The notes: a model not told the origin generated them from the sequence alone. DNA of 64,000 bases from a virus (IMGVR_UViG_3300023171_000010:1-64000); one strand, 5' to 3'. Counted from the stretch's first letter, positions 18,243-39,015 are shown. Program-made: numbers and translations.

Positions 18243-20075
18243 TTATTCTCCTACTGGGAAATTTACGTTAACCTGTTCAAACATGGTTACAAGCCTATTA
18301 CCAAGGTCTTCAGCTTGAGCTGCAACATCCATATTTGCCATAGTGATAGGGTCAATACTAATCTGCAAACTTACTGAAGTAGTTAAAGGCTGAGATTTTT
18401 GTTGGTTTGCAAGATCTGCCAACATGTTTTTCAGGTTGTCATCATAATCTGAAGGATTTTTATAGAAAGCAGAGTCAGGATTATCGTAAACGGCGTTCCC
18501 TCTCTCTGTAGCTCTTCCAAAAGCATCACTAGCACCACCAAAGAATTTTCCAAGAGTTTGGTAAGTTGCTGTAATAGGTCTGTCAATGAAACTTACATCT
18601 TGCTCTTGATTTGGTGAGGCAATTAAATTATTCTTCCACTTCTGAAACTCTGCAATCTGATTCATAATCATCGCAATTTCACGAGCTGTAGCTTCTAGTG
18701 TGGGTAAGAAGTCGAACTTAATTGTACCTATACTTGTAAAAATGCTTTGAATTGTTTTCCAATCAGAAATTAGTTGTGATGTTTTATCAATACCCAGCCA
18801 ATCTGCTACAAGACTGTCTTTGCCTTCAAGAGCCCTGATGAAAGATTGAGGGAAAAGAAGTAAGTCATCAGCAAATTTGGTAGCCTCGTTGAAGCCTTCC
18901 GACAGAGTCCTTACCAAACCTCCACTCTCACTTAAACCTGCTGAAAGGGTTCTAAATATCCTAGCAAAACCCTCTTCAACGCCAGAACTTGAAGCAATTA
19001 CAGCAAGATCTGTAAGTCTATTCTGATATCTTGCTTGCTCTGCTTGAGATGCTTGAGATGCTGAAGCTAAACCCGGTGCTGCCCTTTGAGATGCTACATC
19101 TCCAGCATAAGTAAGGATATCCCCCTTGACTTTCCTGTCTTTCATAGCGGCTAACAGTTCAGTGATTGCAGCCTGACCTGTCTTACCACCGCCAGCACCT
19201 GTTGCCTTTAATTTATTTTGATAGGCTTCGGCGAAAATGCTTACAGCACCCGGCAGACTTTCTGCCAGCTGGCCTGTTAACTCTTCGCTCATCAACTGGT
19301 TCTTACCAGCAACTTGACTTAGTGCTCTATATACACGATTCTGGGCTGTTCTGTCTAATTTATTTACACGGGATAACTCAGAGAAACCTTTGAAAACTCC
19401 TTGACCTTGTTGTACGCTCATACCAGCGCCTGTGAGGCCTGACAAAAGTTTATTGTAGTCAGGAGAAGCGTCTAAGTAATTAAAGCCAATACGCTGACCT
19501 TCTTTACGGAGCCATTCGAATGATTGATTTCCCTGTTCAGCTGTACCACCGGCCTGCTGAACTACAGCCTGTGACTGAAGTTGCGCACTCACTACTTGTT
19601 GGTTTCTTTGATTCAGGGCACCGAGGCCATAACCGCCCAGACCTAGGGCCAGTGCTGGTCCATATAGTCTAGAAATCCCTCCCGCAATCCCTCCAGCAAC
19701 AGCAGCATGTCTTCCAGTGACACCAGCGCCTTGTGCGTGTACGTTAGGCCTAATTGTAGCTGATTGACTTGCTACACGACTGGCTTGTGTCGTTGCAGCA
19801 GTCATGGCCCTATTCAAATGGGCTTGGTCAACAACAAACCTTGAGATTTGGAAAGTAGTTCTAGCAGAGGCGATATCTAGTGCTGTACCAAGAGCTAAGT
19901 TTAAGCGTCTTTGGTCAACATCAAATTTACCCAATGAAAGAGTAATAGGTTTATTGGCAATATTACCAAAAGACTTAAGTCTTGCTTCAAGTCTGTTAAG
20001 TACCTTATCTACTCTTTTAACAGACGCTTTATCAATATCAAAACCTAGACTAGCGAAGTATTTACTAATTTGCAA
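18243..20075 (-). CDS. tail tape measure protein
   Basis: 610 aa, Ala/Gly/Gln-rich helical, downstream of chaperone pair; probable TTG start. Confidence 0.6.
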   Translation of the reverse strand: MQISKYFASLGFDIDKASVKRVDKVLNRLEARLKSFGNIANKPITLSLGKFDVDQRRLNLALGTALDIASARTTFQISRFVVDQAHLNRAMTAATTQASRVASQSATIRPNVHAQGAGVTGRHAAVAGGIAGGISRLYGPALALGLGGYGLGALNQRNQQVVSAQLQSQAVVQQAGGTAEQGNQSFEWLRKEGQRIGFNYLDASPDYNKLLSGLTGAGMSVQQGQGVFKGFSELSRVNKLDRTAQNRVYRALSQVAGKNQLMSEELTGQLAESLPGAVSIFAEAYQNKLKATGAGGGKTGQAAITELLAAMKDRKVKGDILTYAGDVASQRAAPGLASASQASQAEQARYQNRLTDLAVIASSSGVEEGFARIFRTLSAGLSESGGLVRTLSEGFNEATKFADDLLLFPQSFIRALEGKDSLVADWLGIDKTSQLISDWKTIQSIFTSIGTIKFDFLPTLEATAREIAMIMNQIAEFQKWKNNLIASPNQEQDVSFIDRPITATYQTLGKFFGGASDAFGRATERGNAVYDNPDSAFYKNPSDYDDNLKNMLADLANQQKSQPLTTSVSLQISIDPITMANMDVAAQAEDLGNRLVTMFEQVNVNFPVGE

Positions 20076-20089
20076 TGTTCATTACTCCG

Positions 20090-20340
20090 TTATTTATTTT
20101 TAGGTTTCTTTGCTTTTTGTTGTTCTGCAAATTGATCTTGAAGTGAATCATAAACATCGAGCAGTTCTAACATTTTATAAAGCTGCCTAGTAGAATACTT
20201 GCTATCCATCTGTGCGGCTATTTCAAGCCCGCCTTTTTCGTGCATCGCTATTCTATAAATCTGCCAGGACTGAGAGAATGTCTCATCGATATTCTTCTCT
20301 AAAGGTGTAGGGGGTTTTCTATCTCCCGATCCAGATCTTA
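20090..20340 (-). CDS. -1 frame extension of tail assembly chaperone (GT-like frameshift product, putative)
   Basis: Frame -1 relative to the chaperone is open from inside its 3' end to TAA at 20092-20090 (about 90 codons); GTTTTTC run near the junction. Confidence 0.35.
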
Positions 20341-20668: not shown

Positions 20669-21166
20669 TCAGATTAAATTGTTTACAAAATCACTAGCTT
20701 CATTAACAATACTGTCAAAGATGCTAGTAGATGGTCTTGTATTACCAGCAACTGTATAAGTATCGGTGGTTTGACAAAATATCTCCCAATTCCGATATTC
20801 AAACTGTCCAGAATACGTGGCTGTAGGGTATCCTACGATATAGGCTTCATTAGACGAATATACACTAGCACCTGATCTGTCTTTTAAAGTAAGAGAAATA
20901 CGTGCTGTACCTTCCTCTAAATCTAATTCATGAATATAAGATAGTACATCATTACTAGGGGAAAATTGAATAAGTGGTATTGTGATTGTGCAAGAGCTGT
21001 CCACATTAAGGACTCTTGTATGCTTACCCCGAATACCCCTTATTACTGTAAACCCTTTTGCGCTTCTAGAGATAGAAATACTTTCCCAGCCGACTACAGT
21101 ATATCCACCAATAATTAGCTGTACATCTTTTGGTGAGTAAGTTGTTACTGTAAAACTATTAGCCAT
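20669..21166 (-). CDS. tail tube protein paralog C
   Basis: 165 aa; shares GF.DGTFIS / SPSNDVL / KDRSG motifs with ORFs 22228-22731 and 22779-23312. Confidence 0.5.
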   Translation of the reverse strand: MANSFTVTTYSPKDVQLIIGGYTVVGWESISISRSAKGFTVIRGIRGKHTRVLNVDSSCTITIPLIQFSPSNDVLSYIHELDLEEGTARISLTLKDRSGASVYSSNEAYIVGYPTATYSGQFEYRNWEIFCQTTDTYTVAGNTRPSTSIFDSIVNEASDFVNNLI

Positions 21167-21178
21167 TACGGGGTTCCT

Positions 21179-22171
21179 TCATATTTGTAGCCCGCCGAAC
21201 TCTTCATAAATCGAAACAATTACATCTATATTACTGAAATAAGAAGTTTCGGTATAACCGTCCATGATTTCTTCCTTTGGTAATACTGAGCAGTCAATCC
21301 TATTTTTACATTCCCTTTCGGCCATCAAGCACATAGCCTCATTAGGAAATTCCCATATACCAAGTGTTCTTAACGTGTACACTGTTTTGGAACTCTGCTC
21401 TTTTAGTCTACGTACTGGACTTCTGGCAACGCCAAACTTAACAGCAATTATATTTAAAGAATCATAAATCCCTGTTATATACGCCTTATTAGAGTTTGTT
21501 TTCCTACAAGCGCAGGGCAGACAACCATTTTGTAAAGATCCTGTATAAGATTCTGCCTCTTCATTGCACACGGGGCAAAACATTTTCCAGTATGTTTTGT
21601 ATCCATAAGAGTTGAGTCTATCACTTCTCCAGAATTTAGTTTCTGGATGAAAAACTCCAAGTCTCATAAAAGATTTAATCATATCTATATCAGGCTTAGT
21701 TAACCGTTTTGAGGTCAGCTCGGATTTACAATCTGAACATCCTTTATAGTTACGATTAACTAAATAACTGATTTTGTTGACTTCGTATTGACCGTGTTCA
21801 GGACAACTTAGTAAGCACTTAGTTTTAGCACCTTTAAACTCACCAATAAAGCCAATAAAAACCACTCCAATTTCAGTAGCCTTTCTTGAACACAGGACAG
21901 AATGTTGGTCTTTTGACCACTTGGGGATTCTACTGCAACCACAAGGTAGTGTACCTTTGCTAATTTCAGACTTAATTATTCTAAAATAACCCTGCCCAAA
22001 TAATTCAGGATCTTTTGAGCAAATATGACATTTAGCTATGTAAAACTTTTTAGTACCTTGTTTACCAGTCCACCCTACAATCTCCAGTTGGTTATGTGGG
22101 CCAAAACAGTCGCCAACTAAAGAGTCTTTGCATAACTCAAAATTCGAGTCCAAAAGTTTTTCTAAGTCCAT
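21179..22171 (-). CDS. freestanding homing endonuclease candidate (Cys-rich Zn-finger region + GIY-YIG/T5orf172-like C-terminal domain)
   Basis: 330 aa inserted between tube paralogs; several CxxC pairs; C-terminal GIYDSLNIIAVKFGVARSPVRRLKEQ...GYTETSYF resembles a T5orf172/GIY-YIG core. Confidence 0.4.
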   Translation of the reverse strand: MDLEKLLDSNFELCKDSLVGDCFGPHNQLEIVGWTGKQGTKKFYIAKCHICSKDPELFGQGYFRIIKSEISKGTLPCGCSRIPKWSKDQHSVLCSRKATEIGVVFIGFIGEFKGAKTKCLLSCPEHGQYEVNKISYLVNRNYKGCSDCKSELTSKRLTKPDIDMIKSFMRLGVFHPETKFWRSDRLNSYGYKTYWKMFCPVCNEEAESYTGSLQNGCLPCACRKTNSNKAYITGIYDSLNIIAVKFGVARSPVRRLKEQSSKTVYTLRTLGIWEFPNEAMCLMAERECKNRIDCSVLPKEEIMDGYTETSYFSNIDVIVSIYEEFGGLQI

Positions 22172-22227
22172 GGATAATCCCTTTATTGTGATTTAGGGAT
22201 TTTACAAGAAAAACTTAAAAATGTCAA

Positions 22228-22731
22228 CTAAATTATTCCTTGCAGTGCCGGTAATGCTCCAATTGCCAAGTTTACAAGATCTTGAACAAGACTTTCTTCG
22301 CTAGAATTGCTACCATAGTTGATTATGGCTTGAGACGACCTTAGTACCCATGTCCTTGTATCTATGCCACTACTCTTACTCATCGTAGGTAATCCTTCGA
22401 TCCAAGTGTTGGTGGAGAATAATAAGTCAGAGCCAGATCTATCTTTCACAAATAAACTAAATTTCCCTTTTTGACTGATTTCGTCTAACTGCCAGAACTT
22501 AGTCAAAACATCATTGGAAGGAGAGCCACAATGTAGTGTCAATGTAATCGTATAAGTTTGGTCATTGTTGTAAATTCTTCCTACCATTCCATCAGCTGTC
22601 CTGCCTGATGAAAAGGGTACTAGGTCTTTTGTGACACTTATGAATGTCCCATCAATAAACCCGCTTACAGGGAGGATACCACCTATTAAGCAAGAAACTT
22701 CATCGGGACAGTAATTGAAGATATCTGCCAT
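22228..22731 (-). CDS. tail tube protein paralog B
   Basis: 167 aa; GFIDGTFISV, SPSNDVL and KDRSG motifs. Confidence 0.5.
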   Translation of the reverse strand: MADIFNYCPDEVSCLIGGILPVSGFIDGTFISVTKDLVPFSSGRTADGMVGRIYNNDQTYTITLTLHCGSPSNDVLTKFWQLDEISQKGKFSLFVKDRSGSDLLFSTNTWIEGLPTMSKSSGIDTRTWVLRSSQAIINYGSNSSEESLVQDLVNLAIGALPALQGII

Positions 22732-22778
22732 ACCCTTTCCTTAAAATAAGAAAGGGGGAGATTAATCCCCCATATCTA

Positions 22779-23312
22779 TTACTGATTACCCAGCTGCCAA
22801 CGAGCTTCTACAGTACCACCAACGGCGTTAACTGCTGCAACATCTGCTGCACTAAGAAGCATATTACCACCAATGAACAGGTCACTACCAAACATGTAGA
22901 TATTCCAATCACGAGTTTCTGTAGTCGAGCTAAAAGAAGCATTCGCAGGCGCTGCAATGATAGCATTGCTTGAAGATACTACAGTCTGCCCACTCAAATC
23001 TTTCATAGTGCAAGAGAACACCCAGTCATTGCCTGGGTTGTTTGCGTCAGCATTCTGAAGTGCTTGAAGGACAGTATTTGATGGTGAATACTGATGGAGT
23101 GTTACAGTAACATTCATCGCTGTAACACGACGCTTTACTCGACCAAAAGCATTATCACCTACACCTTGATAAGGCTCTGATGTTGGGACAATTCGATCCA
23201 TAGAGATGAAAGTGCCATCTGCAAAACCTGTTACTCGGTGAATAAAATCACCTTTACTTAGGATGATTGTAAAATCATCCGGCAAATAATTGCCAATTCC
23301 TGTGTCAGACAT
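22779..23312 (-). CDS. tail tube protein paralog A (probable major tube)
   Basis: 177 aa immediately after sheath gene; GFADGTFISM and SPSNTVL motifs. Confidence 0.5.
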   Translation of the reverse strand: MSDTGIGNYLPDDFTIILSKGDFIHRVTGFADGTFISMDRIVPTSEPYQGVGDNAFGRVKRRVTAMNVTVTLHQYSPSNTVLQALQNADANNPGNDWVFSCTMKDLSGQTVVSSSNAIIAAPANASFSSTTETRDWNIYMFGSDLFIGGNMLLSAADVAAVNAVGGTVEARWQLGNQ

Positions 23313-24652: not shown

Positions 24653-25192
24653 CTACGGATAAATAATGCCAGGAGGCACTGAGAAGATAAGGGGTGGAAC
24701 AGATATGTTATCCCCAATTACTACTGCTTCTACTACATCAACCACTTGCTGTGTATTAACAACATAATTGAATGTTACGTCAATATTATGATATTCAACC
24801 CACTTAGTATCTCTTTTTTGTGGTGCTCTACGTATTTGACTTTTACGCATAACACCAAGATTATTCTTTTTAAGAGTTTCTAAAGCTAAAGGGTTTTGAT
24901 TAATCCTTTGAATAAAACTTTGAGCCATATCACCAGACTCAGAACCAATAAAACTAAATTGAACAAGGCATTCATAGAAAGCTTGTATAGTCAGCTGTTC
25001 ATTGGTGTTTGTAAGTACTGAGGTACTATGATGCCCTTGCTGTTCTATACTCAGTATGTTAATAGCACAATAACTTTTTGAAGGTTCTGTCCCATTTTGA
25101 TGAGAGAGTATCACAAGAGGGTTTGTAAATTCAGATAAGGCTGTAGTTGCAGCCTCAATAAGGCCGTCACTAACATCACTATAAATTGACAT
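24653..25192 (-). CDS. tail completion / neck protein
   Basis: 179 aa between connector genes and sheath. Confidence 0.35.
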   Translation of the reverse strand: MSIYSDVSDGLIEAATTALSEFTNPLVILSHQNGTEPSKSYCAINILSIEQQGHHSTSVLTNTNEQLTIQAFYECLVQFSFIGSESGDMAQSFIQRINQNPLALETLKKNNLGVMRKSQIRRAPQKRDTKWVEYHNIDVTFNYVVNTQQVVDVVEAVVIGDNISVPPLIFSVPPGIIYP

Positions 25193-25674
25193 TAGGGGGA
25201 AGTCCTTTTATCTACTTTAAAATCAATAGAGTCATACAGAAGTCCACTATCAATAAGTGGATTATCAAACCCTTTAAGTGCAACTGTAACAGGACTATTT
25301 CTAGGAGAATCCCACTTCTCTACGGCGTCTTTAAGGCCAACCTTAGCCACCATACCTAATCTTACATACTCTTGCTTAAAGGTGCTTTTTCCTTCGGCAA
25401 TTCTCTGTATACTCTCGATGAAATAATTATCATACGAGCCTTTTTTGATGGGCGCCATAAACCCAACACGAATAGCTGGGCGGGTGGGGATATTCTTAGC
25501 TGGTAATCCTTCTTCTTGCCACTGCCACACTTGTGCTACAGCTAAGTTGTCATTATCAGAACCATAATTTACAGGCTCTACAATTCCAACCTGAAGCTCT
25601 TGACCAGAAGCTTTGAGAAGATCCTTTTTCATCTTATCCCACACAGAAGTATCTACTTTTAATGTAAACGCCAT
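25192..25674 (-). CDS. tail terminator / neck protein
   Basis: 160 aa, position. Confidence 0.35.
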   Translation of the reverse strand: MAFTLKVDTSVWDKMKKDLLKASGQELQVGIVEPVNYGSDNDNLAVAQVWQWQEEGLPAKNIPTRPAIRVGFMAPIKKGSYDNYFIESIQRIAEGKSTFKQEYVRLGMVAKVGLKDAVEKWDSPRNSPVTVALKGFDNPLIDSGLLYDSIDFKVDKRTSP

Positions 25675-25683
25675 AGATACTCC

Positions 25684-26070
25684 TTATGTCGATGGTGCAT
25701 CTGGGGTAAGTTCTATCCTTGCAGCTTGAATTTTCACATGCTCCAAAATTCCCATTCCGTTGGTCCAATCATCAACCTTCATGATTTTATAACGGTCATT
25801 CTTCCAAATGAATTCATCTGCAGACCAGCCACCAGTCCCTTCCTTGAGAGTACGAGCGTAATCAGCAGAGTAGAATTTGACCCAAGCTCTTGTTCTATCA
25901 GCTTCTGGAAGCATTAGGATTTCATAAGGCTTAAGTGGCTGGATATTGACCTGCAAAACTATTTCAGAAGTAGATCCTTCTACCCACCTACCATTAACAT
26001 AAGAGCCTTCAGATTTACGAAAGATTGTTAATGGAATCTTGTGTGTCAAAAGGAATTGAGGTCTTAACAT
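25684..26070 (-). CDS. head-tail joining protein
   Basis: 128 aa, position. Confidence 0.35.
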   Translation of the reverse strand: MLRPQFLLTHKIPLTIFRKSEGSYVNGRWVEGSTSEIVLQVNIQPLKPYEILMLPEADRTRAWVKFYSADYARTLKEGTGGWSADEFIWKNDRYKIMKVDDWTNGMGILEHVKIQAARIELTPDAPST

Positions 26071-26079
26071 TTCAACTCC

Positions 26080-26541
26080 TTAAGGAATCACAATAAATTG
26101 AACACCAAAACTATCTCCACATCCGCAACCACATCTGTCATCACAATCACAAGTTTTAATTTGTGTAAGTTTAGGACGAACATTGTCCGAGTTATGGTTA
26201 TTGGCACAAACATCTGACCAACTAATCCCACCAGCCCAAGGCATCATTCCATTAGGCAGATTAACAATTGGGTTGTCAATTAGATTACCAAGAGCTTTTA
26301 AATATTGAGTAGAGAGAGATGACCACACTTCAATATCACCAGTACGCTCTCTTGTACTCCAACCAGCCAATTGAAAGCTTGCAGAAATTGCAGCCATCCT
26401 TGCAGCTAATTGAACATTTCCATTATTCTGATCTAGAAAGAATTGTATTTCATCGTCAGTGAACAGCTGATAGAAGGGCGATGTGGGGACATCACCGATC
26501 AAAATTCTAACTTGTTGAATGGGCGTTAAGGCCATAGCCAC
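26080..26541 (-). CDS. head-tail connector/adaptor protein with C-terminal Cys cluster
   Basis: 153 aa; C-terminal CDCDDRCGCGCGD motif; position downstream of capsid gene. Confidence 0.4.
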   Translation of the reverse strand: MAMALTPIQQVRILIGDVPTSPFYQLFTDDEIQFFLDQNNGNVQLAARMAAISASFQLAGWSTRERTGDIEVWSSLSTQYLKALGNLIDNPIVNLPNGMMPWAGGISWSDVCANNHNSDNVRPKLTQIKTCDCDDRCGCGCGDSFGVQFIVIP

Positions 26542-26558
26542 TCCTTTAAAAGTAAGGA

Positions 26559-26575
26559 GGGCAGACTAGCTGCCC
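26559..26575 (-). terminator. hairpin terminator/attenuator after small capsid-associated gene
   Basis: GGGCAG-ACTA-GCTGCCC stem followed on the - strand by a T-rich tract. Confidence 0.4.
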
Positions 26576-26580
26576 GGTTT

Positions 26581-26805
26581 TTAAGCGACAATACCAGCAG
26601 TCTTAAGTTTAGCTAGAAAAGCATTCAACTCCACAATAAGGGCTGCTGTATCAGCACCCGCGAAGTTAGCTTGAGTTGCAGCCTTCTTTACAGTGCCATT
26701 GACAGTAGTAGTTGCAACAGGAACACCAGCGCCAGAATTTACTTGAGCAGCAATAGAATTAACTGCCTCAATATAACCTGCACCAACTGTTGGGGTAACA
26801 GCCAT
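26581..26805 (-). CDS. small Ala/Val-rich virion protein (capsid-associated?)
   Basis: Start at internal Met (MAVTPTVG...) because the track's N-terminus runs into the capsid-gene terminator hairpin. Confidence 0.4.
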   Translation of the reverse strand: MAVTPTVGAGYIEAVNSIAAQVNSGAGVPVATTTVNGTVKKAATQANFAGADTAALIVELNAFLAKLKTAGIVA

Positions 26806-26823
26806 ATTTATATCTCCAAAGAA

Positions 26824-26839
26824 GGGGCTTTTCAGCCCC
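26824..26839 (-). terminator. intrinsic terminator after major capsid gene
   Basis: GGGGCT-GAAA-AGCCCC hairpin followed by TTCTTT on the - strand. Confidence 0.5.
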
Positions 26840-26847
26840 ATTCAGAT

Positions 26848-27936
26848 TTAGGCAGCGATACTTACGCGAACCAGGGCTTGAGGACGCAGTACAGCGTTCA
26901 TGAAGTTAGATTCAGACATGATTTCAATGAAATCGTCTTTCTCGTTCATGTATTCAAACCAGTAAGCTTCTTGGGCAGTTTGGTTAACAGTTGCAAAACG
27001 GTTTGCCGGGGCAAAATAAGTTTTGAACAGTGCAGCAGCAGCCACTTGTGGGAACACATACGCATCACCAGCTGGGATGTAAGGAACAGTTGCACCAGTT
27101 ACACGATCGGTGTAGCTACCACGATATTCGATCCACAGAATACCACCATAGCTAAAGGTGCGATAACGAGCATCCAGACCATACACGTTAGCAGTTAGAC
27201 GACCAGTCAGAACGTCAGCACCACGATCACGAGCGTAGTATTTGTAAGCATCTACTACGAAAGGATGGGTGATCAGTGCATTGAAGAAAGAAGGTGAGCA
27301 GACAGCAATCATACCTTCAACAACCTGACCAGACTGAATACCATCTTGAACACCAGCAATGATAGGCTCAACACTTTCCAGAGGATCGGTAGCGAGACTG
27401 TTCAAAGGCATGGTCAATTCAGTACGGGTAACACCAAACTCGTTGTACCAGTTAATGGTAGCACCGTAAGATTGACGCAGAGTACCACTTGGAGCATATA
27501 CGGAACCAGTGGTGATCAGTTGAGCACGAGCAGCCTCAAGAGTCACAGCGTGGTTCATACGCATTTGTTGCATTTTACGGGCACGAGTACCAGCAACAGT
27601 TTCAGTTTGGATACCAGCGAAAACGTTATCCCAAGCAACAACACCGTCAACATCATTTGGAGTAATTGCATCATCCAAAGGGAAGTGAGGAATAGAAGCA
27701 GTCAGATAGCTACGAGTTGGGCCACGGGAAGCGTTGTTACGTTCATCCCAGTTACGGTCTGGGATCAAACCTTCGTTCCAAGTGGTACGAGGAACCAGAA
27801 CAGTCTTTTGGGTTTTACGTTCAGTGTCGAAGATACCCAATTGGTTGAACAGACCCCAAGAGTTGGGGACGATCATGATATCTTCGGACAGGTCTACTAC
27901 GCGGTTGAAGTCCGTAGGATTATAAGAAAGTGGCAT
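26848..27936 (-). CDS. major capsid protein
   Basis: 362 aa between protease/scaffold gene and connector genes; GGAG RBS; followed by a strong terminator. Confidence 0.6.
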   Translation of the reverse strand: MPLSYNPTDFNRVVDLSEDIMIVPNSWGLFNQLGIFDTERKTQKTVLVPRTTWNEGLIPDRNWDERNNASRGPTRSYLTASIPHFPLDDAITPNDVDGVVAWDNVFAGIQTETVAGTRARKMQQMRMNHAVTLEAARAQLITTGSVYAPSGTLRQSYGATINWYNEFGVTRTELTMPLNSLATDPLESVEPIIAGVQDGIQSGQVVEGMIAVCSPSFFNALITHPFVVDAYKYYARDRGADVLTGRLTANVYGLDARYRTFSYGGILWIEYRGSYTDRVTGATVPYIPAGDAYVFPQVAAAALFKTYFAPANRFATVNQTAQEAYWFEYMNEKDDFIEIMSESNFMNAVLRPQALVRVSIAA

Positions 27937-27954
27937 AGTTATTTAAGCTCCAGA

Positions 27955-28389
27955 TTAAACAGTAAGTTCAAGAATGACGCCCTGCTCTTTGAGCAAGTGA
28001 CGCAGACCTTCGAATTGAGTGGTGTTCAGGAAACCAGAAGTGGCCTGACGTACTGGGTAATCTTTCAGGATTACGTTGTCACGGACATAACCAACAGCAT
28101 TGTCGGTAGTTTCAGCAGCCAGCAAAGTGAAGCCTTGTGGCTTAGCGCAATATTCGTCACCAAACAGAACGATGAATTCGTTAGTAGCAACAAGCTGTGC
28201 AGCAGCAGACAGAAGAGTGTAAGCAGTGTCAGTTGCAGCTTTTGCACGATAAGCAACCATACCCATTACAACAGGAGTATCAGCAGCTACGTCAACAAAG
28301 ACAACTTCACGGGCATAACCAACACTAGGATCACGTTCATGAACTACAAGGTCGGACAGTTGGGTAAAACCACGAACTACGATGGGCAT
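27955..28389 (-). CDS. capsid-associated/decoration protein
   Basis: 144 aa between scaffold-protease and capsid genes. Confidence 0.4.
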   Translation of the reverse strand: MPIVVRGFTQLSDLVVHERDPSVGYAREVVFVDVAADTPVVMGMVAYRAKAATDTAYTLLSAAAQLVATNEFIVLFGDEYCAKPQGFTLLAAETTDNAVGYVRDNVILKDYPVRQATSGFLNTTQFEGLRHLLKEQGVILELTV

Positions 28390-29729
28390 TATTTAGCACC
28401 TTTTTGGAATTGATTTTTCAAGAGTTGAGCGGTGAGGTTTTCACCTTGAGGTTTTTCTGGCACTACTTCTTTACCCTGACCACCAACTTCTGACATCAAA
28501 GCGGAGTGGTCGATTACTTCAGCTTGTGCTTTAAAGCCAGCTACAACAGCTTCAAATGATGCATCATCCAAAGCAGACAACGATGTCAGCAAAGCTTCTT
28601 GTTTAACAGCAGACAATTTTTCTTTCCGGGCTGACAGTTTAGCTTCAACTTTTTCAGATTCCATCTGAGCTACTTTTCCAAGAGCTTCGCTCAATTTTGT
28701 AGTCTGATCGGTGAAGTTAGTCTGCAACGTAGCGAGAGCTTGTTTTACAGAGGAGAACTCTGCAAGTTGCTCATTTGCAGCAGTGAGTTGCGATTGCAAT
28801 TCAGCAAGTTGGGTCATTTCAAGAGTTTCCTCAGTGTTGTTTTTACTAAATTTAAAGATACGATTACTCATCGAACTTCCTTCTTTATTATTTTGGGCTT
28901 GGCCCGACAGGTAAGAATAAAAATCTTCTTGAGTCATTACCTTATCAGCTAGGCCCAAAGCAATTGCATCTTCTGCAAGGAAGGTGTTTGCTTGAGTATT
29001 CCTAACTGCTTCCACTGTCATTTTGCGATGTTCTGCAACATATTCAGTGAAATCTTTGTAGAGAGCATCTACTTTGTATTGAAGATCATCCAAGAACTCT
29101 TTACGGAAAGATCCATCTTCTGCGAATGGAATCTTCTCAGTTCCTGCTGAGATAAATGAACGCTCGTAACCTTTCATCTCAAGAGCTTTAGAGTCATTCA
29201 TCAAACGAATCAAAACACCAATAGAGCCGATTTCAGAGTTCTTATTGGAGATGATTTCGTCAGAGATTGCGGTGAGGCCATAGGCGGCACTAGCGGACAG
29301 CCCGTCTACATATGAGATGATTTTTACACCGTTGTCATCTGCCAATTTACGCAGATAATTACCAGTATCCATCATACCGTAAGCTTCGCCACCACCAGAC
29401 TCGACCATAAAAGCTACAGTCTTAGTACCAGCCTCAAGCAGCGCCTCAAAGTCTTCCTTGATACTCTCGTATGAAGTGCCGCCACAAAAAGCTTCCCATC
29501 CAGTTGACTTATTAGTCAATGGGCCTGAAATGTGGATAACACCCAGGTTTGATTCGGCGTAGTGCAAAGTGCTATACATTGAAAATTCATTGTCAGCCTT
29601 TGGAGTAACGTCAACAGCCCCTTCACAACGTTTATCTACATAGTTAAGAATAGATTCAAAACTTTTAGAGTCCACTAGGAGAGGAGTGTCGAACAACTTA
29701 GACCGGAGTCTAATGAGTTCATGAGCCAT
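28389..29729 (-). CDS. prohead protease-scaffold fusion (S49/ClpP-fold peptidase + C-terminal coiled coil)
   Basis: SppA/S49-like segment VAFMVESGGGEAYG...VDGLSASAAYGL followed by a long coiled-coil tail. Confidence 0.6.
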   Translation of the reverse strand: MAHELIRLRSKLFDTPLLVDSKSFESILNYVDKRCEGAVDVTPKADNEFSMYSTLHYAESNLGVIHISGPLTNKSTGWEAFCGGTSYESIKEDFEALLEAGTKTVAFMVESGGGEAYGMMDTGNYLRKLADDNGVKIISYVDGLSASAAYGLTAISDEIISNKNSEIGSIGVLIRLMNDSKALEMKGYERSFISAGTEKIPFAEDGSFRKEFLDDLQYKVDALYKDFTEYVAEHRKMTVEAVRNTQANTFLAEDAIALGLADKVMTQEDFYSYLSGQAQNNKEGSSMSNRIFKFSKNNTEETLEMTQLAELQSQLTAANEQLAEFSSVKQALATLQTNFTDQTTKLSEALGKVAQMESEKVEAKLSARKEKLSAVKQEALLTSLSALDDASFEAVVAGFKAQAEVIDHSALMSEVGGQGKEVVPEKPQGENLTAQLLKNQFQKGAK

Positions 29730-35862: not shown

Positions 35863-36146
35863 AGTGGGGCAGCCTCGTCTGCTTTCAAATGAATCAATTA
35901 TACTAAAGAATATAATTGACTATAATAACTGGTACACCCCACAGGGAATGATCCTGAGTCATCCAGATTATGAGTCCGGCTGCTTTACCTTAAGCTAGAG
36001 GTGTTTAGAATAGGTGGAACCCCGCCAGAGGTTCCGGGTGTGGACTAGGCAGTCCGATACCAAGCCGAAGCTTAGTTAGGTTTGTAGCTGGGAGTACTCG
36101 CTCCATTTAAAGCCTACCGTTTCACACTGGCTCACTACAAATTCTT

Positions 36147-36548
36147 TTAATCTCCGTCTTGATCAGGTTCTGTATACACCAGACTCAAACGAGGCTTTAA
36201 TTCTGCTTTGATTTCAGATGGAGTCTGTTCACCAGCTTCCAGAGAATCCTTAACTTCAAACTTGAGCTTATTGTAAGAGATTTCTTCAGCATTAGCAGAT
36301 TTACTCACTGTCACAATACTATTGACAAGCCACTTACTTGAGCCAAGCTGTTCAGTGTCAATCTGTTCACCATTGATACTCTTCTTGATATTCTCAAGAG
36401 CTTTATCTTTCATTTCAAGCAACTGTTCTTCTAGGATGCGAAGCTTGCTTTTAGTGATTCGTTTGCTGTTTCCGCCAGTGGTCTTACGATTCGACTTTGG
36501 ACCGTCGAATCTTGTCGCTGGGCTAGGATTTTTATTCTTGGTAGCCAT
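36147..36548 (-). CDS. basic N-terminus / acidic C-terminus hypothetical protein
   Basis: 133 aa, Lys/Arg-rich N-terminal 40 aa. Confidence 0.4.
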   Translation of the reverse strand: MATKNKNPSPATRFDGPKSNRKTTGGNSKRITKSKLRILEEQLLEMKDKALENIKKSINGEQIDTEQLGSSKWLVNSIVTVSKSANAEEISYNKLKFEVKDSLEAGEQTPSEIKAELKPRLSLVYTEPDQDGD

Positions 36549-36805
36549 AATATTTATTCCTATGAATAAGTGATTTCTTAAGCGAACTTACCGGCTATGC
36601 CCTGTAGTATTCATAATGAAGAAGAACGCTTAAGAAAGAACACTCACTAAGCGAAGGAGAGAACGCCGCAAGTGTTCGAAAGACCTATTGGAGGAGAGAG
36701 GGACAATAGGTCTTTAAGTGCTGTCTTAGGAGAGGAAATGACAGCGTGAATACCACAATCTTTTTAGACTTACTCTTAGTGATTGTGGGTGAAACTTTTA
36801 CAATG

Positions 36806-36877
36806 TATTCGCAACAGGGGTCGAACCTGTAACCAGAAATTTAGAAGATTTCTACTCTACCATTGAGCTATGCGAAT
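36806..36877 (-). tRNA. tRNA-Arg (anticodon TCT)
   Basis: Hand-folded cloverleaf: perfect 7-bp acceptor ATTCGCA/TGCGAAT, D-arm GCTC-AATGGTA-GAGT, anticodon loop CTTCTAA, T-loop TTCGACC; no encoded CCA. Confidence 0.75.
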
Positions 36878-36880
36878 ATA

Positions 36881-36954
36881 TGGTGCCCCAGTAAAGAATC
36901 AAACTTCACTCTATTGCTTACAAGGCAATTGCATCATCACAATGCTTCAAGGGC
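36881..36954 (-). tRNA. tRNA-Thr-like (anticodon TGT), non-canonical
   Basis: 74 nt with correct arm spacing, anticodon loop CTTGTAA, encoded CCA; acceptor has one T-T mismatch and the D-loop lacks GG. Confidence 0.4.
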
Positions 36955-36959
36955 TTAAT

Positions 36960-37037
36960 TGGCTGATCCTCAGCGATTCGAACGCTGCTTCATCTTGATT
37001 AACAGTCAAGTGCCCTCACCTAGATGGCTCAGGATCA
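36960..37037 (-). tRNA. tRNA-Asn (anticodon GTT)
   Basis: 7-bp acceptor TGATCCT/AGGATCA, anticodon stem CTTGA/TCAAG with loop CTGTTAA, T-arm CAGCG-TTCGAAT-CGCTG, encoded CCA. Confidence 0.6.
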
Positions 37038-37100
37038 ATAATTGGTCTCTAACCGGTGAATTGAACACCGTCCACATCGTCCCAAACGATGCATGCTACC

Positions 37101-37188
37101 GTAACACTTGTCAGAGAATATGGCAGTGGATGTGTGATTCGAACACACGGAGCTTTTACACTCTAAGGTTTAGCAAACCTTTGCAATC
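37101..37188 (-). tRNA. tRNA-Ser (anticodon GCT), type II
   Basis: 88 nt; acceptor AGTGGAT/ATCCACT, 3-bp D-stem, anticodon loop TTGCTAA, 16-nt variable arm, T-arm GTGTG-TTCGAAT-CACAC, discriminator G, encoded CCA. Confidence 0.8.
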
Positions 37189-37216
37189 GGCCTCTCTGCC
37201 AATCCACTGCACTTGT

Positions 37217-38614
37217 TTAAAACTTATAACGGTCTTTCATTACAGCATCCATCATGACAGACTCTGGGGTCATAGACCCACTCAACAAGCTCTTCATAAT
37301 AGTTGGACTAAAGCCACTAACCAATACCGTTCCCTCAGTTCCTTTCGTTACTGGAACTGTACCAGATGAGCAGTTTACATTCCAGAATACAATCTGTGGA
37401 AGTTGATATCCTGATTCTTCATAAGCTTGTTTGAATGCCTGATAGGCTGTTACTTGATTCCCATCACGAATGCAGCTATTAAACTGCATATCTGAAACAA
37501 TCAGAAGCTTTGTGGGCATTTCATCTGCTGGAACACTATACTGTTTAGCTACACCAAGAAGGGTCGTAAAAACTGCTTGAATGTTTGTACTCATTCCCCA
37601 AGGCGCTTTCTTCAAAGCTGCAACTCGTTGTTGCAATGTACCCTCAGACCGGATTAACTGAGGTTGTTCTGAGAAAGTCATAAAGACGTTCTTAAGAACA
37701 CCAATGTTTCGTTCTGACAAATACAACCCCAATGAAACAGCGACATCCATGCAAGTAGTTTCTGACTTACTTGAAGCTCCACCTGCTTTACAACTCATAG
37801 AGCCAGATACGTCCACAATTGGGAGGAAACGTTCTGTACTGTCCTCCAAATAGTTAGGAAGGGCGTTCCACTGAGCCGAAGCAACAACTCCATCTCCATA
37901 CGCCACAGACTTAACTACATCGTAAGGATAAACAACAGAAGCATTAATCTTAGCTTCACCTGTTTCAAGTTTAGCTTTATATTCTTCGTATTCTTTCTTA
38001 GCGTTGCGACCAAATGCTTTTTGATAACGGGCGGCAGCTACAGACGGAATCTTTTCAAAATCAATTTGATCCCATTGCTTTGCACACATCTGTGTTTCAA
38101 CAACACTCGTCAACTCCACCAACATCTTACGATATTCTTTAGGTGTTTTGATTTTCATGTGTTTGCGCAAAGCAGATGCTGTGTTACCTTGACGTGGAAG
38201 CCATTTAGCACAGAGGCCGTTGTTATCAGCCAAACCTGTAGAAATTAAATCAAAGGCTTGTAGTTGGAACTTAGTTCCTTCAAATATAAGCAAATCATCC
38301 CAACGTCCAATTTCAGGAATCAACGGAATAATTTGTTCCAATACTTTATCTTGATGTTCAACAAGAACACTCAATAAGTCTTTAAACTGTTGACGCTCAC
38401 CAGCACCTTCTCGTGCATCGCGAAGCCATAGAAGTGTGCGAATAGCTACGTCTTTGTTTTCAGCCAGAGCTTTCACAAAGTCTGATTTGATATCTTTACC
38501 ACGGCTTGCCCCAGAAACATAGAAGAAATCTAGGCAAGATGACAAGCTGCTATGATGGGTAATAGCGCCATTCTCAGTTAATGCTGTGTTATTAAAAGCT
38601 TCGTACAAGTTCAT
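37217..38614 (-). CDS. vWA (MIDAS DxSxS) domain protein with helical N-terminal domain; Ro60/TROVE-like or DUF2828-like candidate
   Basis: GGAG RBS then ATG at 38614 (MNLYEAF...); C-terminal IVDVSGSMS MIDAS motif; N-terminal TENGAITHHSS..LDFFYVSGASRG loosely resembles the Ro60 N-terminal motif; the track's N-terminal extension runs into a tRNA-like element. Confidence 0.5.
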   Translation of the reverse strand: MNLYEAFNNTALTENGAITHHSSLSSCLDFFYVSGASRGKDIKSDFVKALAENKDVAIRTLLWLRDAREGAGERQQFKDLLSVLVEHQDKVLEQIIPLIPEIGRWDDLLIFEGTKFQLQAFDLISTGLADNNGLCAKWLPRQGNTASALRKHMKIKTPKEYRKMLVELTSVVETQMCAKQWDQIDFEKIPSVAAARYQKAFGRNAKKEYEEYKAKLETGEAKINASVVYPYDVVKSVAYGDGVVASAQWNALPNYLEDSTERFLPIVDVSGSMSCKAGGASSKSETTCMDVAVSLGLYLSERNIGVLKNVFMTFSEQPQLIRSEGTLQQRVAALKKAPWGMSTNIQAVFTTLLGVAKQYSVPADEMPTKLLIVSDMQFNSCIRDGNQVTAYQAFKQAYEESGYQLPQIVFWNVNCSSGTVPVTKGTEGTVLVSGFSPTIMKSLLSGSMTPESVMMDAVMKDRYKF

Positions 38615-38652
38615 AATTTTCTCCTTAAGATTAATATCAGAATCACATTTAC

Positions 38653-38711
38653 GTGCTCTACCAACTGAGCTACATGAGCCTAAACCCATGACAGGACTTG
38701 AACCTGTGACC
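38653..38711 (-). ncRNA. tRNA-like element (T-arm module followed by acceptor/D-arm module, permuted order)
   Basis: - strand reads GGTCACAGGTTCAAGTCCTGT (variable + T-arm) then a CATGGG/CTCATG hairpin then GGCTCATGTAGCTCAGTTGGTAGAGCAC (acceptor 5' + D-arm); no canonical cloverleaf can be closed. Confidence 0.35.
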
Positions 38712-38792
38712 ACGACTTTATCATAGTAGGTTTTATTGCGGTAGTGATTCTTCGTTTTGCCTATTCAGAATGTACATATCTATATGCGAGAG

Positions 38793-38920
38793 TGGATTGC
38801 TGTAGACATTCTTTGGGGCTTATCAGGCTCTACTTTACTTTTCCAATAGTTTGAGATTGCTGTAGAGAGCCTTTAAATTTCTTTCTTAGGAGTAGTATAC
38901 ACTATAAATCTTGGATTGCA
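38793..38920. repeat. three GATTGC-core repeats phased at about 60 bp
   Basis: TGGATTGCTGTAGA at 38793, GATTGCTGTAGA at 38855, TGGATTGCAAGC at 38912; spacings 60 and 59 bp. Confidence 0.4.
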
Positions 38921-38940
38921 AGCTTTTAATAAAATATATT

Positions 38941-39015
38941 TGGAGCGGATAGGGAATTTCGAAATCCCGACGAACAGCTTGGAAGGCTGACACTCTGCCT
39001 CTGAGTTATACCCGC
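38941..39015 (-). tRNA. tRNA-Gly-like (anticodon TCC), non-canonical T-stem
   Basis: 75 nt; acceptor GCGGGTA/TATCCGC, D-arm ACTC-AGAGGCA-GAGT, anticodon loop CTTCCAA, canonical T-loop TTCGAAA but T-T at 53:61, encoded CCA. Confidence 0.4.

Follow-up and report, generated by a model that had tools for sequence, protein, structure and literature searches.

The window analyzed here is a 64-kb stretch of viral DNA (IMGVR_UViG_3300023171_000010:1-64000) that carries three tandem genes for related tail-tube proteins, which we call tube A, tube-B and tube-C, and a gene for a homing-endonuclease-like protein inserted between the second and the third. It is highly probable that the trio is an old set made up of the main tail tube protein and two single-ring, baseplate-proximal relatives, that a hairpin following tube A contributes to their unequal dosage, and that the endonuclease gene belongs to a mobile cassette that took no part in creating the paralogs. 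The tail sheath gene lies on one side of the trio and the tail assembly chaperone (TAC) and tape measure protein (TMP) genes on the other; all features of the locus are on the minus strand. An initial annotation, made from the sequence alone, had placed the four open reading frames (ORFs) exactly, and its description of the trio as lying between sheath and chaperone genes agrees with the domain matches of both neighbors (Table 1).

The three tube proteins are homologous far beyond chance, as the initial annotation had proposed. Pairwise blastp alignments give 35.6% identity over 132 residues for A and B (E 8e-16), 35.9% over 131 residues for B and C (E 1e-17) and 35% over 94 residues for A and C (E 2e-11). 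The proteins can be aligned over their whole length with 30 invariant columns, and each matches phrog_280 over nearly its full length (E 7e-26, 5e-32 and 6e-34 for A, B and C, respectively). The motifs from which the homology was first proposed are not spurious in these alignments, although only one of them is common to all three proteins. SPSN(D/T)VL is present throughout, GF(A/I)DGTFIS occurs in A and B only (C reads GWES---IS there), and KDRSG occurs in B and C, with KDLSG in A.

A megablast search with the 4.7-kb region returned no match among 50,697 phage records, indicating that the phage has no close cultured relative. The nearest isolate is the Pseudomonas phage vB_PsaM_M1, which came from seawater and is filed under Ounavirinae; its sheath protein is 50% identical to that of the window, compared with ~40% for other Pseudomonas phages. 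An ICP1-like vibriophage, suspected from the CapR domain of the endonuclease, was ruled out because the nearest isolates are Pseudomonas phages, with sheath identities of 40-50%. Protein searches with the tube paralogs find three places per genome in hundreds of Pseudomonas-phage records (Pakpunavirus, Nankokuvirus, Flaumdravirus and related phages). In the annotated neighborhoods of vB_PsaM_M1, Adele, KIL1, KPP10 and Bestia, three adjacent tube-like genes span the interval from sheath to chaperone, and those of the Acinetobacter phage Bestia are labelled tail tube protein I, II and III. Recognizable sequence similarity within the trio, which had been regarded as unusual, is therefore the rule in this lineage, as the structures of phage P7-1 also illustrate (PMC13338283). 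Not every Ounavirinae-like phage has the trio, since Felix O1 has a single tube gene beside its sheath gene. The window carries the standard form of the tail-tube module in a large clade of phages, mostly uncultured and ~85-92 kb in size, that is related to vB_PsaM_M1 and, more distantly, to Pakpunavirus, Nankokuvirus and Flaumdravirus.

The labels carried by these genes in GenBank are uneven. Orthologues of tube-C are misnamed in several records, among them those of vB_PsaM_M1 (‘tail assembly chaperone protein’) and bmx-p3 (‘capsid protein’ at the corresponding position); the tape measure gene of vB_PsaM_M1 is labelled ‘nucleotide kinase’.

An all-against-all comparison and a neighbor-joining tree of 19 tube proteins from six phages of different genera resolve three positional clades. 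Tube A groups with the first-position genes of vB_PsaM_M1, Adele, KIL1, KPP10 and Bestia, tube-B with the second-position genes and tube-C with the third-position genes. Tube-B and tube-C are 50% and 45% identical to their vB_PsaM_M1 counterparts, and orthologues share 39-50% identity, compared with ~35% between each protein and its own paralogs. Because the proteins are closer to their positional orthologues than to one another, the triplication must be older than the split of these genera. When IMG/VR was scanned with an alignment of tube-B, 80 loci were recovered, and all 80 have the order A-B-C with a gap of -4 to 39 nt between tube-B and tube-C, which leaves no room for an insertion at that junction in any of them.

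The same data bear on the proposal, made in the initial annotation, of duplication or gene conversion driven by the endonuclease, taken here as a recent duplication of the tube gene or ongoing conversion among the paralogs. The endonuclease gene does lie physically between two of the paralogs, and endonuclease sites coincide with recombination breakpoints (described below), but we regard this explanation as very improbable. Paralog identity is lower than orthologue identity and the tree consists of three old positional clades; no DNA repeats joining the three genes were found; and the trio is already complete in 80 of the 80 relatives that lack the cassette at this site, a comparison that the initial annotation had put forward as a check. 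In the exchanges that we observe, the partners are orthologous alleles from different phages rather than paralogs. The lack of DNA repeats together with the tree excludes recent duplication and paralog conversion, and the endonuclease had no part in creating the three paralogs.

The cryo-EM atlas of the Pakpunavirus P7-1 (PDB 9ZD7/9ZD8) offers a structural counterpart for each member of the trio. In P7-1, gp77 (174 residues) is the main tail tube, with 204 copies arranged in 34 hexamers, while gp78 (‘tail tube-B’, 166 residues) and gp79 (‘tail tube-C’, 159 residues) form one hexameric ring each in the baseplate ‘cap’, coaxial with the tube (PMC13338283). The rings are stacked in the order main tube, gp78 beside the last main-tube ring, gp79, and then sheath initiator, hub and spike; the C-terminal helices of the tape measure protein form a six-helix ‘crown’ at the tube-B/tube-C interface, and the shorter C-terminal helix of gp78 and gp79 reflects the absence of sheath contacts (PMC13338283).

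A search of PDB sequences discriminates clearly between the two single-ring proteins. Tube-B matches gp78 (9zd7_H) over residues 5-163 with an E-value of 1.2e-34 versus 1.1e-9 for gp79, and tube-C matches gp79 (9zd7_G) over residues 6-154 with an E-value of 9.9e-30 versus 8.8e-18 for gp78. Other sequence matches of the trio in the PDB are the Bas63 and Sf14 tube proteins, the PhiTE tube and Phi92 gp131. The window and P7-1 also share the gene order sheath, tube, tube-B, tube-C, chaperone, tape measure, and the same partner genes. The tape measure gene was found directly in the window, and those for the sheath initiator, hub and spike were located through the precomputed Pfam labels of L007, a near-identical locus (TMP_3, Dit_like, Pam3_gp18, spike N-terminal domain and Sheath_initiator). 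In both phages the lengths of the tube proteins decrease from A to C (177, 167 and 165 residues in the window). From this orthology we infer that A is the major tube protein and that B and C form two baseplate-proximal tube-like rings. Tube A would polymerize into the long tail tube inside the sheath, and tube-B and tube-C, as ancient paralogs, would contribute one hexameric ring each to extend the tube into the baseplate cap. The expected order is main tube, tube-B, tube-C, sheath initiator, hub and spike, with the C-terminus of the tape measure protein docking at the B/C interface.

Several observations weigh against these assignments, chiefly against that of tube A. The best PDB sequence match of A is gp78 (E 7e-12), with no close solved structure, and gp77 was not recovered from the PDB sequences even with a Pakpunavirus tube query, so that the assignment of A rests on position, tree and length. 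The AlphaFold2 model of A, built from a three-sequence alignment, is poor (pLDDT 55). A Foldseek search with this model places the tail-tube proteins of Bas63, Sf14, monocin, phage 812, PhiTE and Pam3 first, and these weak matches (best E 1e-3, TM-scores 0.36-0.47) are consistent with a tube fold but go no further. PF11681 (KPP10_Orf10, formerly DUF3277) scores only 15.2, 13.7 and 18.9 bits for A, B and C against a gathering cut-off of 25 bits. For all three proteins, the proposed placement in the virion derives from orthology to Pakpunavirus proteins at 31-40% identity. The window differs from P7-1 in other respects too: its clade is an uncultured group with another host, and its cassette at the tube-B/tube-C junction has no counterpart in Pakpunavirus, where Adele carries a GIY-YIG gene at the sheath/tube junction instead.

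The shared fold family and similar lengths of the three proteins would also suit a heteromeric or variable tube in which A, B and C serve as alternative or co-polymerizing major subunits. This seems most unlikely, given that gp77 is the only protein in the 34-ring tube of P7-1, with gp78 and gp79 confined to one ring each, and that B and C are specific for gp78 and gp79, respectively. The conserved hairpin after tube A (described below) fits unequal dosage as well. The assignment as one main tube protein and two single-ring proteins is retained here.

In T4, gp19 is the tube protein and gp48 and gp54 are baseplate tube initiators that resemble gp19 in fold only and are encoded apart from it. 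The proposed roles of tube-B and tube-C recall this arrangement and the analogous tube initiators of other contractile systems, in which single rings of the tube fold seat the tube on the baseplate hub and seed its polymerization, but the trio in the window differs in being recognizably similar in sequence and encoded in tandem. The initial annotation had suggested that the three genes might encode tube, initiator and terminator proteins. This does not hold for the terminator, which is a separate gene upstream of the sheath gene, is identified by its own domain match (E 5e-24) and is unrelated to the three paralogs.

The spacer between tube A and tube-B provides a possible basis for unequal expression. 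In the window this 47-nt segment contains GGGGGATTAATCTCCCCC followed by TTTCTTATTT (22771-22754), the first-listed terminator-like site in a scan of the region. Across the window and the related loci L007-L094, a perfect GC-rich hairpin is present in 48 of 60 distinct tube A/tube-B spacers (66 of 84 loci), as against none of 32 sheath/tube A spacers and none of 58 tube-C/TAC spacers. The hairpins have 32 different stem sequences, which indicates that the structure is conserved rather than the sequence. A terminator was annotated at the same place in KIL1 by its authors. The hairpin probably works by attenuation or partial termination, so that less tube-B and tube-C is expressed. Positioned right after tube A, it would reduce read-through, and this would fit a requirement for ~200 copies of A versus six each of B and C (~34:1:1 in rings). 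A point against termination is that a clear T-run follows only 28 of the 48 hairpins, so the element could act in RNA stability or processing instead.

The endonuclease gene interrupts this module as part of a ~1.05-kb cassette that was inserted exactly at the tube-B/tube-C overlap, along with its own sigma-70-like promoter and ribosome-binding site. The cassette occupies this junction in the window and in four related loci representing three further lineages, L007 (99% amino acid identity), L008 (72%) and L009/L010 (60%), and in none of the 80 IMG/VR loci. At empty sites, which read ...GAAGGAATCCTATAATGG..., the tube-B stop codon overlaps the tube-C start codon (TAATG or TGATG), and a Shine-Dalgarno sequence, GAAGGA, lies within the last tube-B codons. 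Without the cassette, tube-B and tube-C would be translationally coupled through the overlapping stop and start codons. At filled sites, a relic of the form GAAGGAAyCCnnTAATGG follows the endonuclease stop codon and supplies the ribosome-binding site of tube-C. The junction of the insertion is precise, and the downstream relic in L007 is identical at 22 of 22 positions to the empty site of L020. Retention of this short junction copy would allow tube-C to keep its ribosome-binding site after insertion. The promoter, TTGACA-17-TAAAAT, begins immediately past the tube-B stop codon. It is the only match to TTGACA-N17-TAWAAT in the window, where 0.07 would be expected by chance, and both hexamers are kept in L007, L008 and L009 (TAAACT in L009) despite divergent spacers.

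The distribution of the cassette suggests mobility. Cassette-bearing loci are scattered among cassette-free loci in the tube A and tube-C trees, and more distant members of the endonuclease family (35-47% identity) are found at the tube-C/TAC, TAC/TMP and TMP/Dit junctions and in the early regions of related phages. A tblastn search detected no second copy of the endonuclease in the window. In two related loci (L013, 5900-6000, and L014, 2645-2743), a 45%-identical paralog of the endonuclease lies directly downstream of a sequence resembling the 3′ end of a tRNA (GGTTCGAATCC...CCACCA). Just upstream of that paralog are another CapR-domain gene and a Pyr_excise (denV-like) gene, making this a cluster of several nuclease genes.

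In T4, the genes for free-standing homing endonucleases (Seg, Mob and I-TevI-like GIY-YIG enzymes) lie in the intervals between essential genes as cassettes that bring their own promoters; some relatives have them and others do not, and they bring about co-conversion of markers on their flanks. The cassette in the window resembles them in having its own promoter, in lying between essential genes and in being patchily distributed among relatives. It differs in its DNA-binding module, which consists of CapR-type zinc fingers in place of the I-TevI-type zinc finger and helix-turn-helix, and its activity is predicted from sequence. If the endonuclease is active and selfish, it would presumably cut cassette-free alleles of co-infecting relatives near the tube-B/tube-C junction or within tube-B and be copied in during repair. 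Such cut-and-repair would explain the identity switches seen between relatives at the cassette.

The endonuclease is a 330-residue protein, and its description in the initial annotation as a Cys-rich, GIY-YIG/T5orf172-like protein encoded between tube-B and tube-C is sustained by the CapR fingers, the domain matches of its family and the predicted fold. Its N-terminal region matches PF21817 (CapR) in three stretches containing CxxC...CxC motifs (E 8.8e-29; 99.9 bits versus a cut-off of 24.2 bits), and the protein also matches phrog_681, ‘endonuclease’. A database search returned 71 homologues. Among 50 that were aligned, Cys48, Cys51, Cys77, Gly78, Cys79, Cys123, Cys145, Cys148, Cys199 and Cys222 are invariant, as are Tyr231, Lys245, Gly247, Arg255 and Glu308, of which Tyr231, Arg255 and Glu308 are putative catalytic positions.

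The weak point of this identification is that the C-terminal 103 residues have no Pfam match, even at an E-value of 10. Among the 50 full-length homologues, 17 match PF10544 (T5orf172) and 18 match PF13455 (MUG113); one of these homologues is P0019, with 46% identity across 93% of the protein. The AlphaFold2 model of the endonuclease, computed with the 50-homologue alignment, has a pLDDT of 92 and predicts an intact GIY-YIG fold with conserved Tyr, Arg and Glu residues of the catalytic type. The family members and the predicted structure together support assigning the C-terminal segment as a T5orf172/GIY-YIG nuclease domain. Judged from its sequence, the gene encodes a new, divergent, free-standing CapR-T5orf172 homing endonuclease at a previously undescribed site, the tube-B/tube-C overlap.

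A comparable architecture is known from ICP1 and other phages, whose T5orf172 homing endonucleases combine repeated CxxC...CxC CapR fingers with a T5orf172 domain (Barth, Dunham & Seed 2023, PMC10448857); CapR itself was described as a PLE protein (Netter et al. 2021, PMC8096241). The endonuclease in the window resembles the ICP1-type proteins in its N-terminal fingers and C-terminal nuclease domain, in being free-standing beside essential structural genes, and in its location at boundaries of genetic exchange, termed homing endonuclease gene (HEG) islands (PMC10448857). It differs in its insertion site and in a T5orf172 domain too divergent for a direct Pfam match. Among the named isolates listed (Aeromonas phages AS-zj and phiA047), the related proteins are no more than 24-37% identical to the endonuclease across 41-72% of its length.

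The endonuclease gene is under purifying selection: non-synonymous divergence (pN) is 0.16-0.28 and synonymous divergence (pS) is ~0.8 (saturated), the same range as for the tube genes. This constraint could be taken to mean that the gene has been domesticated and acts mainly as a sequence-specific DNA-binding regulator, as PLE CapR does (PMC8096241), for example to control tail or late genes or to counter a satellite or a competitor phage. Selection equal to that on the essential flanking genes, at saturated synonymous divergence, is unusual for a purely selfish, fixed element, and three CapR-type zinc fingers and a strong promoter of its own, conserved across diverged relatives, would suit such a role. 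We nevertheless consider domestication unlikely: the putative catalytic residues are invariant across the 50 homologues and the predicted GIY-YIG fold is intact, and the location at exchange boundaries fits nuclease activity. Moreover, the gene is absent from this site in 80 of ~84 related loci and the family hops between intergenic sites, which indicates that it is dispensable and mobile.

The opposite possibility, that an old insertion has left behind a gene that is now inactive and decaying, might be entertained because its T5orf172 domain escapes direct Pfam detection and because it has been kept at the same site in diverged relatives. This is hardly compatible with a full-length ORF in all four lineages, a pN far below pS, invariant zinc ligands and catalytic-type residues, a confidently predicted structure (pLDDT 92) and a conserved promoter, and we give it little credence. 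An active, mobile homing endonuclease remains the explanation that we favor.

Comparisons between closely related loci show abrupt changes in identity around the cassette. The window and L007 are 99.5-100% identical for ~4 kb, from 25285 to ~21290, a segment that includes the terminator, sheath, tube A and tube-B genes and almost all of the endonuclease gene. Over the final 60-170 nt of that gene and on through tube-C, identity is only 80-86%, and it returns to 95-99% thereafter. Between these two tube-C genes pN is 0.055 and pS is 0.59, and the differences are mostly synonymous; this rules out positive selection as the source of the divergence and indicates import of a diverged allele. With its crossover located within the 3′ end of the endonuclease gene, this breakpoint cannot serve as direct evidence of homing, a point that weakens the case for endonuclease-driven exchange. 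The cassette must already have been present in both parents, and the event is plain homologous recombination.

Asymmetry between the flanks recurs in comparisons with cassette-free loci. At the DNA level, tube-C of the window and of L007 are 84% and 91% identical, respectively, to tube-C of L020, while tube-B of both is only 69% identical. Similarly, L008 and L021 share 93% identity in tube-C and only 74% in tube-B. The patch of low identity between L008 and L021 (75%, versus 84-88% on either side) coincides exactly with tube A plus tube-B and is bracketed by the sheath/tube A and tube-B/tube-C sites, the former of which holds a 1-kb insertion in L021. Insertions of 560-1470 nt occupy the sheath/tube A gap in ~40% of the related IMG/VR loci (L011, L015-L017, L019-L021, L023, L025, L026 and others), and they encode a single AP2/HNH-like endonuclease family in 33 loci and a different HNH protein in two. 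Endonuclease genes are also located there in Adele and KIL1. The window has a 15-nt gap and no insertion at this site, which is far more often occupied than the tube-B/tube-C site.

The link between the endonuclease gene and recombination that the initial annotation had drawn is thus retained in a different form, with the gene marking a boundary between phage lineages in the comparisons with L007, L020 and L021. The breakpoints at the cassette match the ‘HEG island’ pattern of genes at boundaries of exchange (PMC10448857), and they provide circumstantial support for endonuclease-stimulated exchange between orthologous alleles of different phages. More tentatively, two homing-endonuclease landing sites, sheath/tube A and tube-B/tube-C, may partition the tail-tube module such that tube A plus tube-B moves between phage lineages as a nuclease-bracketed HEG island; we regard this as possible, though less likely than not. 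If it is true, the tube-B/tube-C endonuclease would cut within the tube-B alleles of other phages and carry the linked tube-B allele with it, and selfish nucleases, not structural constraints, would set where tail-tube genes recombine. The purifying selection on the endonuclease would then stem from continued homing or from a role as a weapon against co-infecting relatives.

A further change in identity lies outside the tail module. Window and L007 are 86-95% identical from 26085 to 25286 and jump to 100% at ~25285. In the adjoining region (L007, 1-2980, compared with 25286-27936 of the window), the major capsid protein of L007 is only ~46% identical to that of the window (26848-27936), and L007 contains an extra 289-residue gene. 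The head and tail modules have different histories.

Table 1. Features of the tail-tube locus and its neighbors, listed in the direction of transcription
Feature	Position	Strand	Evidence or remark
Tail (sheath) terminator gene	24653-25192	-	PF23961 Phage_tail_terminator_9, E 5e-24; phrog_7975 tail terminator; unrelated to the three paralogs
Tail sheath gene, 430 aa	23328-24620	-	PF11863 DUF3383, E 5e-29; phrog_205, E 1e-93; directly upstream of the trio
Tube A, 177 aa, putative major tail-tube protein, P7-1 gp77 orthologue	22779-23312	-	phrog_280; first-position clade
GC-rich hairpin and T-run, GGGGGATTAATCTCCCCC then TTTCTTATTT	22754-22771	-	Spacer between tube A and tube-B
Tube-B, 167 aa, P7-1 gp78 orthologue	22228-22731	-	phrog_280; PDB match; orthologue clade
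Sigma-70-type promoter of the endonuclease cassette, TTGACA-17-TAAAAT	22199-22227	-	11/12 consensus positions
Endonuclease gene, 330 aa, 19 Cys, between tube-B and tube-C	21179-22171	-	
Endonuclease N-terminal DNA-binding region, residues 1-227, three CapR-type zinc-finger repeats (predicted)	21491-22171	-	PF21817
Endonuclease C-terminal nuclease domain, residues 228-330, GIY-YIG/T5orf172-like fold (predicted), and stop codon	21179-21490	-	
Relic of the tube-B/tube-C overlap junction, GAAGGAACCCCGTAATGG	21163-21180	-	Keeps Shine-Dalgarno sequence and TAATG for tube-C
Tube-C, 165 aa, P7-1 gp79 orthologue	20669-21166	-	phrog_280; PDB match; orthologue clade
Tail assembly chaperone (TAC), 106 aa	20338-20658	-	PF21822 Phage_TAC_15, E 8e-8; PF10876; phrog_1613; downstream boundary of the trio
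Tape measure protein (TMP), 610 aa, TTG start	18243-20075	-	PF20155 TMP_3, E 1e-10

Downstream of the trio, the -1 frame is open from the chaperone stop codon (20338-20340) into a 51-residue ORF (20090-20245; phrog_4625). This layout (20090-20340, minus strand) is as expected for a programmed -1 frameshift that yields a long chaperone isoform; an obvious X_XXY_YYZ slippery heptamer was not found at 20090-20340. The tape measure ORF begins with its TTG codon 14 nt past the preceding small ORF, and its identity to L007 ranges from 95.5% to 100% per 200-nt bin. Seven tRNA genes (Met, Arg-TCT, Thr, Asn, Pro, Ser and Gly) form a cluster at 35930-39015 on the minus strand, upstream of the structural module. 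Two antisense ORFs on the plus strand, of 355 residues (27346-28413) and 175 residues (26671-27198), lie opposite the capsid and decoration genes and are most likely non-coding by-products of codon bias.

The locus contains nothing categorically new and leaves the current understanding of contractile tails and homing endonucleases unchanged. Its main value is in correct annotation. Pipeline labels for the trio are inconsistent, ranging from ‘virion structural protein’, ‘tail assembly chaperone’ and ‘capsid protein’ to three separate ‘tail tube’ entries, and orthology to P7-1 makes it possible to name the genes consistently as main tube, tube-B and tube-C. A second contribution is a well-resolved case from nature of T5orf172-type genes at exchange boundaries beside essential structural genes, with filled sites to set against empty ones, a surviving relic of the junction, conservation of the promoter and asymmetry between the flanks. 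Finally, the hairpin after the major tube gene would be a simple, testable dosage device for the ~30:1:1 stoichiometry of the three tube proteins.

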